Assembly: GCA_025832235.1 (NCBI GenBank)
Contig: GCA_025832235.1_3649.1
Reading direction: 5' to 3' (one strand)
From: a phage
DNA: 64,000 bases
This document shows, one piece after another, positions 21,988 to 64,000 of the stretch. Below the pieces are notes generated by a model. It was not told the DNA's origin, ran no database searches, and was given only the letters and a program-made list of their open reading frames with translations. Position 1 is the stretch's first letter, and each line of letters begins with the position of its first letter. Position numbers and translations under genes: made by a program.

Positions 21988-22266
21988 ATGAGCTGTGAAA
22001 AATCTTTTTTCTTTATTATTTACGGTAAAGATAACTGCCCACATTGTGTAAGAGCAAAAGAATTTGCAGTCAGTAAAGGTCTGCCTTTTGTATATAAGAC
22101 ACTTGGCGAGGGTTACACAAAAGAAGAGCTTATTGAGAAGTGTAGTCCAATCGTGCCCAGAACGTTGCCGCAGATCTTCTTAGAAAGCAATCTTGAAAGT
22201 GTCCATATAGGCGGTGCCGACGATTTCATCTCTTTTGTTAAGAATGGTTTTGGAGAGAAAAAGTGA
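21988..22266 (+). CDS. glutaredoxin/NrdH-like redoxin
   Basis: CPHC active site in thioredoxin-fold-sized protein between nrdB and nrdD. Confidence 0.7.
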   Translation: MSCEKSFFFIIYGKDNCPHCVRAKEFAVSKGLPFVYKTLGEGYTKEELIEKCSPIVPRTLPQIFLESNLESVHIGGADDFISFVKNGFGEKK

Positions 22267-23123
22267 AAGTTGTAAAACGGGACGGTAGAGAAGAGTTCTA
22301 TAACGGAATTAAGGTGATCAAGGCGGCAGAGTCCGCCTTACTTGAGTCTGGACATACTGAAGAAGAAGCTCACCGGATCGCCTGCGCGGTTAATGAAGTT
22401 GTTGCTAACAATCTACCAACCGACCAGTGCACGATCTCTGTAAAAAATATCCATATCCTTGTTGAAGACGCTCTTATGGATATGGGTTTAAAATGTGCAG
22501 CCAGAGAATACATCCAGTATAGACAGACAAGAGATAATAACAGAGAGGCAGGTGGAAAACTGCTTGCAGATATTAGTGGCTTCTTGGATCGAACTTGTGA
22601 TGAATTTACAAAAGAAAACGCAAATAAGCCTACTAATCATGTACACACTCATCGTGACCTGCTTGCAGGCATCCTTAGCAAACACCTTGCATCAACACAG
22701 ATCCTGCCAGACCGTGTTTCAGAAGAGCACAATAAAGGCTTCATCCATGTGCATGATCTTGACTACTTGATCAGTCCGTTAACAAACTGTTGTTTGGTAA
22801 ATTATCCAGATATGTTGGAAAACGGATTCAACATTGGTAACGCCCATGTCAGTAAGCCGAAGTCAATAGGGGTTGCAACAACAATCCTTAGCCAAATTTC
22901 TAGTGCAGTAGCTAGTGCTCAATATGGTGGTCAGACTATGAGCCATATTGATCATTACCTAGCACAGTATGCTGAAGCAACCTATGAGAAGAACCTTAAA
23001 TTTTGCCAGGAACATTGGTTGCCAGATGCTGAGACTGTTGCAATGCAAATGACAGATAAAGACGTGTTTGACAGCATGCAGACGTTGCTTTATCAGATCA
23101 ACACACTAACCTCGGTAAACGGT
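22263..23123 (+). CDS. nrdD: anaerobic ribonucleotide reductase, exon 1
   Basis: N-terminal ATP-cone VVKRDGREEFYNGIKV; frame ends 1 codon after proposed 5' splice site (exon ends ...NTLTSVNG). Confidence 0.8.
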
Positions 23124-23371
23124 TAACAAACTGGCCGTTTTAAAACTCTGCTAACCTCAGTATGAGGGGTCAGCTGATCGCTGGCTAACGGGGAACGCTA
23201 AGGCGAAAGCTATGCCAATCCCGTGACTAGCTTCACAAGGAGTGAGGCGGTTGTAACGACTAACCTTTTGGTGTAGGGATTATGGAAGATTCCGAAACGC
23301 AGAGGTCTGATTAAGAATCACACGGTGTGATTTCAGGCAAGAGATAGTCTGGCCTTGTGGAAACATAAGGG
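23124..23371 (+). ncRNA. group I self-splicing intron in nrdD (no internal ORF)
   Basis: 5' exon AAACGGU pairs with intron GCCGUUU (G.U at splice site); P7 GACUA (23225-23229)/UAGUC (23345-23349); hairpin CCUUGUG-GAAA-CAUAAGG then G at 23371; length restores frame. Confidence 0.6.
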
Positions 23372-24643
23372 TGGGGACCGCAAACCCCTTTTATCACATT
23401 AAGTTTAGGGCTGGATACCTCGGTCTTTGGTAGAATGATTACCAAAAACTACTTGAAAGTCCACAAAATGGGTCTTGGTGAAGAACGTATCACACCTGTG
23501 TTCCCTAAAGTGCTGTTCTTCCTGGAAGAGGGTGTCAACATGAACCCCGGAGATCCTAACTATGATTTGAAACGATTAGCTCTGGAATGCTCTGCAGAGC
23601 GGATTTATCCTGACTTTGTTTCTGTTCCACTAAATCGTAAAGTGACAGGCTCGACAGATGGCAAAGTAACGAGCATGGGTTGCCGGAGTTTTCTTAGCAA
23701 ATACAATGACTTGGAAACAGGTGAGGAGAAATACCTTGGCAGATTCAACTTGGGTGTTGTTAGCCTTAACCTACCAATGATTGCGGCAAAAGCTAAGACT
23801 GAAGGTGTTGATTTCTTTGCCGTTCTTGACGAGTATCTGGATTTGGCATATGAAGCTCACCTTGTAAGGGTTAACCGTCTGAAAGGCACCAAGGCAGGGC
23901 AGAACCCTATCATGTGGTGTGAAGGCGCTCTTGCTCGCTTGGACCCTGAAGAGAGTATTGATAAACTCTTCTATGACGGGTACGCTTCCATCAGTATTGG
24001 GTATATTGGTGTGTATGAAACCTGTCAGATTTTGGGCAGGGAGGGTGACAAGGCTTTAGCTCTTGGAATACTTCAGCACATGAGAGATGCTTGTGAGAGA
24101 TACAAGAAGGAAAGTAGACTAGCGTTTAGCTTGTACGGCACCCCTTCTGAGAGTCTATGCTATAAAGCTGCAACCTGTCTGGATCGTGAATATCCTGAAG
24201 TGTTGAAGCACGAGCATGAATATCTCACCAACAGTTTCCATCAGCCAGTATGGATAAATAGCTCTCCTTTTGATAAGTGGGAGTATGAGGAAGGTTTTGC
24301 TATGATCTCCTCTGGTGGCAACATCGGATACGTAGAGACACCTAACCTGAAAAACAACTTGGATGCTTTAGAGGCTCTTGTTGACTTCGGGTATAAACAC
24401 ATTATGTATTTTGGTATTAACCAACCTGTGGATAAATGTCTCAAGTGTGGTTTCTCTGGTGAGTTCAGTGCAACAGCTAAAGGGTTCTGCTGCCCTGCGT
24501 GCGGATGCCACGATGAACAATATATCTCAGTGATCCGAAGAGTGTCTGGATACCTTTCCAGTCCTAACTCCCGTCCTTACAATAAAGGTAAGCAAGCGGA
24601 AGTTATCGAGCGAGTTAAGCACTATGAAAGTTGTAGTTGCTGA
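23372..24643 (+). CDS. nrdD: anaerobic ribonucleotide reductase, exon 2
   Basis: VFPK, GDPNYD, LALEC...RIYPD, MGCRSFL, Zn site CLKCGF...CPACGC, glycyl-radical motif RVSGYL. Confidence 0.8.
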   Translation, partial: WGPQTPFITLSLGLDTSVFGRMITKNYLKVHKMGLGEERITPVFPKVLFFLEEGVNMNPGDPNYDLKRLALECSAERIYPDFVSVPLNRKVTGSTDGKVTSMGCRSFLSKYNDLETGEEKYLGRFNLGVVSLNLPMIAAKAKTEGVDFFAVLDEYLDLAYEAHLVRVNRLKGTKAGQNPIMWCEGALARLDPEESIDKLFYDGYASISIGYIGVYETCQILGREGDKALALGILQHMRDACERYKKESRLAFSLYGTPSESLCYKAATCLDREYPEVLKHEHEYLTNSFHQPVWINSSPFDKWEYEEGFAMISSGGNIGYVETPNLKNNLDALEALVDFGYKHIMYFGINQPVDKCLKCGFSGEFSATAKGFCCPACGCHDEQYISVIRRVSGYLSSPNSRPYNKGKQAEVIERVKHYESCSC

Positions 24644-24709
24644 TACTTGACAAAAGCCACAAGGATGTGGCACACTTAGTTCAAAAATGAGAACTAAGAG
24701 GATCCAGCA

Positions 24710-25870
24710 GTGAGAAAACTTACAACCGAAGATTTTATAGAGGGGGCGAAAGCAGTTCATGGTGATAAATATGATTATTCTAAAGTCAAATATGTGGGTG
24801 CACACACCAAGGCTGTAATTATATGCCCTGAGCATGGAGAATTTAAGAAAACTCTTGGAGATCACCTCCGTAAAAAACAGGGTTGCCCAAAATGTCAGAT
24901 TGAAGCAGAAAGAGCGGCTTATGCTGAAAAATTTAAAGCAGAAGCTGGAGCTAAGTATAATTATAAATATGATTACTCTAAGGTAGAGTATGTCAATGCT
25001 AAAACTAAAGTTGTGATTGTTTGCCCTGTTCACGGTGAGTTTGAGCAAAAGCCTGATAGCCATCTCAACAGCGGTGGTTGCCGCAAGTGCGGGGGAACTG
25101 AGAGAAAGACTACTGAAGAGTGGATCGCTGAGGCAAAAGCGCTTCATGGCGATAAGTATGATTACTCTCTTGTAAATTATAAAACCTGTAATGATGAAGT
25201 GGAGATAATCTGTAATACATGTGGCGCTCACTTCCCACAAAGACCTCATGACCATGCACCAAGTGGAAAAGGTTGCCCCGAGTGCGGGAAGAAGAAGGTG
25301 GCCGAGGTTAGTAGGAAGACGCAGAGAAAGAAAGCATCTGAGGCAGCTAAAAGGTTTGAGGCAAGAGCCAGAGCTATCCATAAAGATAAATACGATTATT
25401 CCAGGGTGGAATATGTTAATAGGGAGACAGAGGTCACTATCATCTGTCCGATTCATGGGGAGTTCACACAAAAACCGTTTGTCCACATCAACCGAAAAGC
25501 TGGCTGTCAAAAATGTGCTAAAGTCGGCTTCTTATCTCATGAACATGGTAGCCTTTATATCATGGTTGACGATCTGGAAGTACCAAATATGATGAAAATT
25601 GGTGTGAGTGTCCGGGTAGATGAACGAAGAAAAGATGTGTTAAAAAGAGCTAAAAAAGCTGGTGCTAGATTCTCTGATCTACATGTTATAAAAACTTGGG
25701 AAGGAACAACAGACGACATGCAAACTTTAGAAAAAGCTATGCACCAAGCCTTGAGCCAATACAAAATCAACTTCACAGAGAAGTTTGATGGCTGTCGAGA
25801 GTTCTTCTACTACAGACCGGAGGTATTCGAGCTAGTAGAAGAACATTTGAAGAAATTTGCTAATAAATAA
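24710..25870 (+). CDS. free-standing homing-endonuclease-like protein (T5orf172 / GIY-YIG-like C-domain)
   Basis: four tandem ~50-aa modules (HGDKYDYSKVKYV...CP.HGEF...GC.KC) plus C-terminal LYIMV...KIGVS...EFFYY; GTG start after AAGAGGA. Confidence 0.6.
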   Translation: MRKLTTEDFIEGAKAVHGDKYDYSKVKYVGAHTKAVIICPEHGEFKKTLGDHLRKKQGCPKCQIEAERAAYAEKFKAEAGAKYNYKYDYSKVEYVNAKTKVVIVCPVHGEFEQKPDSHLNSGGCRKCGGTERKTTEEWIAEAKALHGDKYDYSLVNYKTCNDEVEIICNTCGAHFPQRPHDHAPSGKGCPECGKKKVAEVSRKTQRKKASEAAKRFEARARAIHKDKYDYSRVEYVNRETEVTIICPIHGEFTQKPFVHINRKAGCQKCAKVGFLSHEHGSLYIMVDDLEVPNMMKIGVSVRVDERRKDVLKRAKKAGARFSDLHVIKTWEGTTDDMQTLEKAMHQALSQYKINFTEKFDGCREFFYYRPEVFELVEEHLKKFANK

Positions 25871-25931
25871 TAACACACAAAGGGCCAGCTTTATTCTGGC
25901 ACTTCAGTCCGTCGTAAATTAAGGAGTTGTT

Positions 25932-26057
25932 ATGTCATCTGGTGGCTTTAAAGTAAAAATTTGTAAACACTGCGGTTGTAAGTGCAACCTTCGTTGGTGC
26001 AAGGCACTAGACGATTTTATTTGGCATTGCCCTAAATGTGATGCGGAGTATCTATGA
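25932..26057 (+). CDS. 41-aa zinc-ribbon microprotein
   Basis: AAGGAG RBS; two CxxC pairs; stop overlaps nrdG start (ATGA); below ORF-track size cutoff. Confidence 0.45.
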   Translation: MSSGGFKVKICKHCGCKCNLRWCKALDDFIWHCPKCDAEYL

Positions 26058-26527
26058 ACATTGCTGGATACACAGAAATATCTTACACCGAAGGCCCAGG
26101 TATTAGAACTGCCTTGTGGGTATCTGGGTGCCCACACGCTTGCCCTGGTTGCTTTAATCAGGCATTTTGGTCAAAAGATAAGGGGAGGGAGTTCACTGAA
26201 GAAGACTTGCAAAAAATCTTGTCAGATTTAGATAACCCGTCTGTGTGCGGTATCTCTCTGCTGGGTGGAGAACCCTTAGCGTACTATAATGAGCCAGATA
26301 TTATTAGCCTGATGGAGAAAATTAAGGAAAAATTTGGTGACAAGAAAACTATTCTTGTATATACTGGGTTCACATTTGACCATATCTCTAGTGATGTTCT
26401 TAAACTGGCTGATATCATCATTGACGGTAAGTATGTAAAAGATTTACCAACCAAGAAACCGTTCCGAGGTAGTGATAACCAAAGAATGTTTAAAAAAGTA
26501 TCAGGCGGTTGGGTTCAGGTAGACTAG
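26054..26527 (+). CDS. nrdG: anaerobic ribonucleotide reductase activating protein (radical SAM)
   Basis: Cys cluster GCPHACPGCFN near N-terminus. Confidence 0.85.
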   Translation: MNIAGYTEISYTEGPGIRTALWVSGCPHACPGCFNQAFWSKDKGREFTEEDLQKILSDLDNPSVCGISLLGGEPLAYYNEPDIISLMEKIKEKFGDKKTILVYTGFTFDHISSDVLKLADIIIDGKYVKDLPTKKPFRGSDNQRMFKKVSGGWVQVD

Positions 26528-63282: not shown

Positions 63283-63558
63283 CAATAGTTCAGGTAGGTC
63301 GTTAAGCTACCCCGCACCATTACGTGCATAGCCATACGTTTTCACGTAGGATCGGACCATCTCATATTCCTATGATAAGCAACCACAGGAATCCTCCCAT
63401 TTCGACCGCACTTGCTGGTCTACTTCCTTTCGGAATGGCCTCTGAGCGTTCGCTCTTTTGAGCGCTTCGTTGCGGATTACCTTGCCATAAGGTTTAGGCT
63501 TCCCGCAGTTAAAGAGGTTATTCGACATAGATTACTCTATGAAGCCACAATGTTATTT
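63283..63558 (-). ncRNA. group I self-splicing intron in DNA polymerase gene (no internal ORF)
   Basis: 5' exon ends CAU, intron ends G; elements ACUGCGGGAAGCC (P), GUAAUCCGCAACG (Q), GUAGACCAGC (R) and GAGAUGGUCCG (S); length restores frame. Confidence 0.7.
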
Positions 63559-64000
63559 ATGGTAATAAATAATACGACGAACACCTTCATCGTACCACCC
63601 ACGCTTCACCATCTGGCGGTGCATGAGTATTCCAACTAAGTCACACAGCGATGCACCACCATTTTGTTGGTATGCATTAAGTAAAGAGTGTTTAGATCTG
63701 GTCCAGATAGCATGACCATCAAAAGAGTAGATAAACTTCTTACCCGTTGCTTCCCAGAATTTCTCCAGATCTTCTTTACGCCCCTTAAGACCAGGGTTGG
63801 CATCCCAGAGTGCATCGATTACCCTTTGTCCCAACTCTGGAGAGATGTCCAGCATATCTGCAACTTTATCTTTTTGTGCCCCATACATAACCCCATACGT
63901 GATAGGTTTACCGTCGTTACGGGAAATCTCCTTGCCTGCTACAGAAGAGTAAGCTTTGGCGTTATTACAGTTACCGCACACTGCCACTTTACCATTCCTT
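63559..64000 (-). CDS. family A DNA polymerase, 5' exon (partial, continues beyond window end)
   Basis: motif B-like region ...AKAYSSV...YGVMYGAQ... and NAYQQNGGASLCDL; ends ...VRRIIYYH at the splice site. Confidence 0.7.

Follow-up and report, generated by a model that had tools for sequence, protein, structure and literature searches.

The window analysed here is a stretch of phage DNA of 64,000 nucleotides (nt) (contig GCA_025832235.1_3649.1 of NCBI GenBank assembly GCA_025832235.1), and this work concerns one locus in it: the anaerobic ribonucleotide reductase gene nrdD, the insert that interrupts it and the homing endonuclease gene that follows it. Positions 22263-25870 are 97.1% identical over their full length to phage SophiaRose and parts of them match about 120 GenBank phage records; by this relationship the window phage is an rV5-like coliphage (Vequintavirus). 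The genes are arranged in the order nrdA, nrdB, glutaredoxin, nrdD (split), an open reading frame (ORF) of 386 amino acids, an ORF of 41 amino acids and nrdG, and the features of this locus that are described below are all located on the plus strand.

The interrupted nrdD gene

The gene is read in two frames, as the earlier note on this DNA had proposed. Exon 1 (22263..23123, 287 codons) encodes the ATP-cone and the N-terminal part of the NRDD domain, as judged from the ORF list and Pfam, and its end was fixed by comparison with intronless alleles. Exon 2 (23381..24643, 420 codons plus the stop) encodes the glycyl-radical domain (Pfam NRDD and Gly_radical). The Pfam NRDD profile is divided between the two, with positions 1-154 in exon 1 and positions 156-562 in exon 2. 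The TAA that follows exon 1 in frame (23124-23126) consists of the first three bases of the insert, and the second frame is open far upstream of its own first ATG. When the exons are joined, the result is an NrdD of 707 amino acids whose translation has a single stop, at its end, and which was compared with the T4 NrdD by tblastn.

The insert, as identified by comparison with intronless alleles, its Rfam match, its fold and its pair counts, is a real ORF-less group I intron of 257 nt (23124-23380). It is 257 nt long in six genomes and absent (0 nt) from rV5 and O157 typing phage 14, and the corresponding span in relatives measures 2410 nt with the intron versus 2153 nt without it, a difference of 257 nt. 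Where the intronless alleles read GTC AAC GGG CAA ACT (VNGQTPF), the window reads GTA AAC GGT, then the 257 nt, then CAA ACC; the insertion site of rV5 and typing phage 14 consists of GTCAACGGG on the left and CAAACTCC on the right, and the insert is exactly collinear with these alleles. Because the intronless alleles align exactly around a 257-nt insert, the intron is placed at 23124-23380 with G23380 as its last base (omega G), and CAA comes next.

The earlier note had stated that the gap restores the frame and contains no ORF. Both statements stand, the latter according to the ORF list, but the length of 248 nt and the terminal G at 23371 that it had proposed do not. Frame restoration alone cannot decide the boundary, because excision of 257 nt and of 248 nt would both keep the frame. 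The shorter version was rejected on the alignment with intronless alleles and on further grounds. It would put an additional Trp-Gly-Pro into NrdD and lowers the Pfam NRDD score to 166.3 bits, from 171.6 bits with the 257-nt splice. GenBank already has the 257-nt spliced protein from phage AlexBoehm (QXV75731.1, also QXV79969.1 and QXV84261.1), and the spliced protein of the window is identical to QXV75731.1; the 248-nt version has no copy in the GenBank protein collection. Moreover, the variants of the insert that carry an HNH endonuclease ORF are 798 or 797 nt long, the tail between P9 and the splice site being 1 nt shorter in isim and JEP1, and since such an indel would frameshift a coding tail, the tail is non-coding. 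G23371 only follows P9, 9 nt away from the 3′ splice site.

Public records already contain annotations of the intron and its junction, and our literature search found no paper on this particular nrdD intron. Several GenBank records give nrdD as two proteins, with ATG 23435 as the start of a separate coding sequence; these could be corrected to one spliced gene.

Fold and relatives of the intron

The pairings from which the earlier note had recognised a group I intron were recovered. The exon segment AAACGGU (23117-23123) pairs with the internal GCCGUUU (23134-23140), with a wobble of U23123 and G23134 at the 5′ splice site; P7 is formed by GACUA (23258-62) and UAGUC (23345-49); and the GAAA-tetraloop hairpin turned out to be two, P5a with its loop at 23205-08 and P9 with its loop at 23360-63. 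The group I core could be located whole, with the P3-P8 and P4-P6 domains and with P7 pseudoknotted with P3. In the predicted fold, which was built by hand and followed through helix tables and pair counts, P1 extends over 23117-24 with 23133-40 and P3 pairs 23146-51 with 23299-304. Two extra hairpins, at 23155-67 and at 23168-86 (hairpin B), are located between P3 and P4 (23188-93 with 23219-24), and then come P5 (23197-98 with 23214-15), P5a (23202-04 with 23209-11) and P6 (23230-36 with 23242-48). P7 is followed by a weak predicted hairpin, P7.1 (about 23263-72), and a predicted hairpin, P7.2 (23276-93). P8 (23305-38), P9 (23353-70) and a 3′ tail of 10 nt (23371-80), which ends in G23380, complete the structure.

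Covariation was assessed on an alignment of eight variants, four ORF-less and four HNH-type, from which the unalignable parts had been trimmed. All 472 pair cells of the 59 pairs hold standard pairs (100%), and nine pairs show double-sided changes, one each in P1, P3, hairpin B, P6 and P9 and four in P8. When the partners were slid by 1-3 columns as a control, 31-49% of the cells were paired and 0-2 pairs were double-changed. In P1, the synonymous exon change from GTA to GTC (A-to-C) has its counterpart in the internal guide sequence of the HNH lineage, where U is replaced by G. The P7.1/P7.2 region is unalignable between the lineages: the two hairpins predicted in the window have two different hairpins as their counterparts in the HNH lineage. 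The agreement of the pairs, together with the exact presence/absence polymorphism of 257 nt, puts the group I identity beyond chance. The fold, the boundaries and the restored frame can be regarded as demonstrated by these comparisons, and self-splicing chemistry would be expected from membership in the group I family.

Several points weigh against this identification. The covariation comes from two intron lineages only, the structure was derived from the same sequences that supply the covariation, and hairpins such as the two between P3 and P4 are uncommon in the group I family. In addition, the covariance-model search supported the earlier note in one respect and not in the other: a targeted search of 801 nt with Rfam RF00028 matched 23114-23370 to model positions 1-253 with E = 2.6e-5, but the score of 28.9 bits is below the curated Rfam gathering score of 50, whereas the T4 sunY intron scores 105 bits. 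The copies of the intron in relatives score 27-28 bits, and in a default scan of the whole window at the gathering threshold the only intron reported was one at 63333-63568, not the one in nrdD.

Part of the low score is probably accounted for by misplacement of P3. The Rfam alignment takes the 3′ strand of hairpin B for P3, with one mismatch, and this pairing was rejected, being unable to form in the HNH lineage. P3 at 23146-51 is favoured because neither lineage has a mismatch in it, one of its pairs changes from G-C to C-G, and P3 of T4 sunY agrees with it. The extra hairpins are likely to contribute to the sub-threshold score as well. They fill J3/4, an odd place for a peripheral element, where T4 sunY has only the five-base linker UAAAA, and both are retained with covariation in the HNH lineage. 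A well-supported intron with a low Rfam score means that sunY-like introns with extras between P3 and P4 can escape default scans.

Two further pairings were proposed by RNAalifold. The pairing of CUCU with the conserved AGAG of J8/7, obtained on the untrimmed alignment, was not used, as the 3′ strand of P3 was misaligned there between the lineages. In the other, exon bases 23113-23116 (CGGU, just 5′ of P1) pair with 23377-23380 (ACCG, including the terminal G); it shows one G-C to U-A double change in the HNH lineage and is broken in isim, and it may be due to chance or represent an alternative pairing before splicing. The intron that the default scan did report, at 63333-63568 on the minus strand, is a second ORF-less group I intron (64.7 bits, above threshold). 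It splits a PolA-type DNA polymerase gene in motif C, where the upstream exon ends in ...RRIIYYH and the downstream one starts with DEYQLQV.

Three states of the nrdD insertion site are found in relatives: no insert (rV5, typing phage 14 and at least 70 others), the insert of 257 nt (14 GenBank records, 99.2-99.6% identical to the window) and an insert of 797-798 nt with an HNH endonuclease ORF (about 29 GenBank records). The last of these is a sister intron, present in Vequintavirus FFH2, FV3, slur16, isim and JEP1. It occupies the same site, shares P9 and the type of tail, and is about 87% identical to the window intron in the core from P1 to P7; it differs in the P7.1/P7.2 region and in an ORF of 177 amino acids (HNH_3/I-HmuI-like) that is looped out of P8. 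The start codon of this ORF comes after the 5′ strand of P8 and its stop after the 3′ strand. In FFH2 (L003 3575-3600) and its equivalents, the ribosome-binding site of the ORF, GGAGAG, itself forms the 3′ strand of P3. Because the ribosome-binding site is a P3 strand and the start and stop abut P8, folding of the ribozyme would compete with translation of the HNH endonuclease.

The exons that flank the sister intron resemble the intronless allele, whereas the flanks of the ORF-less intron carry 15 synonymous differences from rV5 in 26 codons, on a background of about 2%. A further sign of movement comes from UViG (uncultivated viral genome) L009, a divergent metagenomic contig that came from a pattern scan of IMG/VR for the P4 core, which otherwise returned mostly unrelated group I introns. 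The L009 intron is 98.4% identical to the window copy, and there is no endonuclease gene at its nrdD locus. Its exons show almost no mismatches within about 70 nt of the intron and up to about 18 mismatches per 50 nt farther out. Therefore, the intron appears to have moved between diverged phages on short conversion tracts.

A second intron site was seen in nrdD of relatives, at the equivalent of about 23678-23698 of the window (L007 3928-4677; L029; L009 2246-2485). Phages 241Ecol014PP, JEP1 and others have an insert of 762 nt there that holds an HNH ORF. The window has no insert at this site, and the flanks (23588-23888) are mosaic, partly like the intron-bearing alleles.

The endonuclease cassette and its distribution

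The ORF at 24710..25870 encodes an intact, free-standing homing endonuclease of 386 amino acids that is, by its domain composition, a typical member of the T5orf172 family, and the four zinc modules described in the earlier note are confirmed. All Pfam scores exceed their cut-offs: DUF723 52.1 bits, DUF4379 41.5, MUG113 31.8 (cut-off 22.3) and T5orf172 27.0 (cut-off 20). The C-terminal nuclease domain (T5orf172/MUG113, residues 282-384) belongs to the GIY-YIG superfamily. It is preceded by four repeats of a zinc module (DUF723 twice, DUF4379 twice) at residues of about 1-64, 65-131, 132-198 and 199-275, in which the pattern KYDYS...C-x2-H/C...GC-x2-C recurs four times; the internal repeat was detected by tblastn as well. 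T5orf172 homing endonucleases of such architecture are often located beside ribonucleotide reductase genes (PMC10448857).

The gene is part of an inserted cassette of about 1.25 kb (24671..25921), delimited by gaps in the multiple alignment and by junction views, which stands in place of about 22 nt of the nrdD-nrdG spacer of endonuclease-less phages. The window, SophiaRose and typing phage 14 carry the cassette, and the otherwise syntenic FFH2, rV5, bov10K2, 241Ecol014PP and AlexBoehm lack it. Among GenBank phages, SophiaRose and typing phage 14 alone have close copies of the endonuclease besides the window, and none of the three alleles is disrupted; in many other relatives this spacer holds divergent T5orf172 genes (67-75% identical). 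The association of intron and endonuclease could not be tested on a larger set because the IMG/VR relatives of the endonuclease are at most 53% identical. A scan for promoters and terminators around the cassette gave nothing over the shuffled expectation.

Directly to the right of the cassette, the alignment view and the mismatch lists revealed a recoded stretch (25925..25990), which comprises the ribosome-binding site and the 5′ end of the small ORF (25932-26057; ORF list and annotation of relatives). In the three endonuclease-bearing genomes it carries two indels (+6 and +3 nt) and about 12 substitutions, so that the small ORF has 41 amino acids there versus 38 otherwise and its first approximately 20 codons are recoded in these genomes only. 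This stretch may be the target of the endonuclease or a region that confers immunity to it. The ORF itself is Cys-rich (CxxC...CxxC), overlaps the start of nrdG and is annotated in SophiaRose as an NTP-reductase protein. The activase gene of the anaerobic reductase, nrdG (26054..26527; Pfam Fer4_12 and Radical_SAM, annotations of relatives), forms the other flank of this insertion hot spot. In rV5 (L004 4621-5190), about 390 extra bases (gp109-gp111), which the window lacks, are located between the small ORF and nrdG and represent a further variable insertion in the spacer.

Another divergent patch is located in exon 2, at 24484-24542, in the C-terminal zinc-ribbon just before the glycyl-radical motif RVSGY. 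It is dense and non-synonymous, with 24 differences in about 60 nt (KGFCCPACGCHDEQY in the window, KGFVCPECGNHEEGT in rV5) and is common to the window, SophiaRose, bov10K2 and CM1 but not to typing phage 14, FFH2 and rV5. It was considered as an endonuclease target and dropped, since its distribution does not track the endonuclease (nor, strictly, the intron).

Of the 14 GenBank records with the ORF-less intron, 13 lack this endonuclease: besides the one record with it, there are four with a divergent T5orf172 gene in the vicinity and nine without any. Conversely, in typing phage 14 the same endonuclease allele, 5 codons away from that of SophiaRose, accompanies an nrdD without the intron; five phages without this allele match the insertion site of typing phage 14 at 100 of 100 nt. 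Related T5orf172 endonucleases are located in the spacer beside intronless nrdD, nrdD with the ORF-less intron and nrdD with the HNH intron alike; JEP1 is an example of the last combination. Typing phage 14 and SophiaRose are near-identical from about 24636 to 26059, with 5 mismatches in the endonuclease gene, and differ throughout nrdD leftward. Their common tract thus starts on the left at about 24542-24636, no less than 1.16 kb away from the intron, and because nrdD differs throughout, the transfer of the endonuclease stopped at least that far short of the intron site. The recoding that is specific to the endonuclease-bearing genomes adjoins the cassette, and nothing comparable specific to those genomes is present at the intron site. 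As distribution, tract end and recoding all point away from the intron site, the target of the endonuclease is most likely near the insertion point of its own cassette.

Mobility of the two elements and known systems

How far are the two elements dependent on each other, and is the intron active at all? On the one hand, the insert might be a dead remnant, with NrdD made as two polypeptides that assemble post-translationally, as in NrdA of Aeromonas phage Aeh1, which is split by mobE. The stop codon after exon 1, the in-frame ATG 23435 in exon 2, which several records use as a start, and the Rfam score under threshold would agree with this. Yet all catalytic-core helices are kept, with compensatory changes in two lineages and no broken pair, the insert is highly conserved in 14 phages and its ends match the intronless alleles without a base left over. 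Moreover, no convincing ribosome-binding site precedes ATG 23435, and a start there would lose 18 conserved NRDD residues (QTPFITLSLGLDTSVFGR) that are common to T4 NrdD. We therefore regard loss of splicing as scarcely credible. On the other hand, the earlier note had seen collaborative homing in this arrangement. In the published form (PMC3984707, PMC2790892), insertion sites without the intron are cut by a free-standing enzyme, whose own genome is shielded by the intron; applied strictly here, the T5orf172 enzyme would cut the intronless nrdD site, the intron would protect, and repair would copy the intron with or without the endonuclease gene. An ORF-less intron and a free-standing endonuclease gene do adjoin the same host gene, in a layout like that of cyanophage psbA/F-CphI, T3/T7-like phages and ICP1 terL/T5orf172 (PMC10448857, PMC3984707). 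The recent horizontal spread of the intron on short co-converted flanks also agrees with it, and cleavage at the insertion site should favour transfer of the intron over that of a gene 1.3 kb distant, which would fit a set of genomes in which the intron is common and the endonuclease rare. However, typing phage 14, with an intact endonuclease and an uninterrupted, ordinary site, would cut its own genome, so that protection by the intron is not seen; the tract that it has in common with SophiaRose starts well outside the insertion site, and together with the 13 intron-bearing phages this speaks against co-inheritance on one tract. The position of the recoding and the occurrence of related endonucleases beside all three states of nrdD point in the same direction. 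Collaborative homing is thus very unlikely and unsupported by the genomes compared, in which the elements seem to move independently.

A looser association, similar to that of T4 MobE and nrdB, is trans homing: a cut in the spacer, followed by resection and repair that sometimes reach the intron, would raise its inheritance. The cassette begins (24671) 1.29 kb beyond the 3′ end of the intron (23380), within the co-conversion range of about 2 kb of T4 endonucleases (PMC2790892); the window and SophiaRose hold both elements, and the whole interval is mosaic, so recombination is frequent there. But the sole traceable recent transfer of the endonuclease ended on the left within about 130 nt of the cassette, without the intron, and most intron-bearing genomes have no endonuclease here. 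Nor is there a sign of joint arrival: the window intron and exon 2 are like those of bov10K2, which is endonuclease-less, and the window cassette is like that of the intronless typing phage 14. As a general explanation trans homing is therefore unlikely, although, with only about 1.3 kb between them, co-conversion of intron and cassette could happen occasionally, and incidental hitch-hiking of the intron with the endonuclease is possible. Certain points nevertheless weigh against separating the two elements. The recent horizontal spread of the ORF-less intron needs a break or recombination near its site, for which the adjacent endonuclease is the obvious candidate; the target of the endonuclease is deduced from flank divergence alone; and only three genomes carry this endonuclease, two of them with the intron. 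We give a modest chance to the view that the endonuclease does mobilise the intron, whether through cleavage of the insertion site, in which case typing phage 14 would be in a transient or self-tolerant state, or through co-conversion over a long distance from the spacer, and that, separately, the hairpins between P3 and P4 are maybe an undescribed peripheral extension of sunY-type introns. If true, this would be a second partnership of an intron with a T5orf172 endonuclease, now in a ribonucleotide reductase gene.

The explanation that we consider probable is that the locus holds two separate selfish elements, a self-splicing intron inside nrdD and a T5orf172 endonuclease next to nrdD. After transcription, the intron, related in architecture to that of T4 nrdD (sunY), would fold into its P1-P9 core, and an external guanosine would attack after U23123, held in P1 through its U.G wobble with G23134. 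The released 3′-OH of exon 1 would then attack after the terminal G23380, and ligation of ...GTA AAC GGT to CAA ACC CCT... would give the 707-amino-acid NrdD (...TSVNG-QTPF...). The stop codon in the first three intron bases would bar ribosomes from the unspliced ribozyme. The endonuclease, for its part, would most probably cleave genomes that lack its gene close to where the cassette is inserted, in the spacer or at the start of the small ORF, and the cassette would be copied in through recombinational repair of that cut. The intron, presumably independent of the T5orf172 enzyme, would be a sibling of the HNH-endonuclease-bearing intron at the same site. It may persist by splicing cleanly and by occupying, and so destroying, the site of the HNH enzyme, and would be carried among phages on short gene-conversion tracts.

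The importance of these elements is limited, as both are ordinary phage passengers that are annotated already, and only the pair of hairpins between P3 and P4 is slightly out of the ordinary. What they illustrate is that nrdD of rV5-like coliphages is a hot spot of selfish elements, with two intron sites, each with ORF-less and HNH forms, and a spacer that gathers T5orf172 endonucleases. Natural genomes with every combination of intron and endonuclease are available, which is convenient for testing collaborative, trans and independent homing against each other.

Compared with known systems, the cassette has the same make-up as the T5orf172 endonucleases (CapR/DUF723/DUF4379) of Barth et al. 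2023, zinc modules followed by a C-terminal T5orf172 domain, and ribonucleotide reductase genes were found in 33% of the T5orf172 neighbourhoods surveyed (PMC10448857); the allele of the window differs in being present in two further GenBank phages only, with a best IMG/VR relative at 53%. The terL intron of ICP1 has a partner endonuclease of the T5orf172 family, as found beside the intron here (PMC10448857). In the collaborative homing systems (S-PM2 psbA/F-CphI, T3/T7-like phages, ICP1), the intron confers immunity, whereas here such immunity is contradicted by typing phage 14 and by the independent distribution. As in T4 MobE/nrdB, an intron in a ribonucleotide reductase gene that is immobile alone has a free-standing endonuclease within about 1-2 kb (PMC2790892); in the genomes compared here, the single traceable transfer of the endonuclease occurred without the intron.

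The closest parallel is the group IA2 intron of T4 nrdD (sunY) with I-TevII. It interrupts the same host gene in the same conserved protein segment, the window insertion site being 10 codons (about 30 nt) downstream of the T4 site, and the T4 layout of nrdD intron, mobC (a free-standing endonuclease) and nrdG is the same arrangement as in the window. In both introns P3 (in T4, UCUGCC with GGCAGA) comes directly after P1, without P2; T4 has P7.1 and P7.2 between P7 and the 3′ strand of P3, where two hairpins are predicted in the window. The junction strings are near-identical (AACGACUA; GAAACG(G)CAGA; GAAACGGCAGA; AAGAUAUAGUCUG in T4 versus AAGAGAUAGUCUG in the window). This comparison was made by eye, as MAFFT was unable to align the T4 core to the window intron, and blastn detected no T4 nucleotide match to it. 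The differences are that the window intron is ORF-less, whereas the T4 intron has the GIY-YIG enzyme I-TevII in P9.1; that 32 additional bases form its pair of hairpins between P3 and P4, and its 3′ tail is short; and that the neighbouring endonuclease is of the T5orf172 family, that of T4 being HNH. By this shared architecture, the window intron is a further sunY-type phage intron (probably of subgroup IA type), at a new position in the same gene segment.

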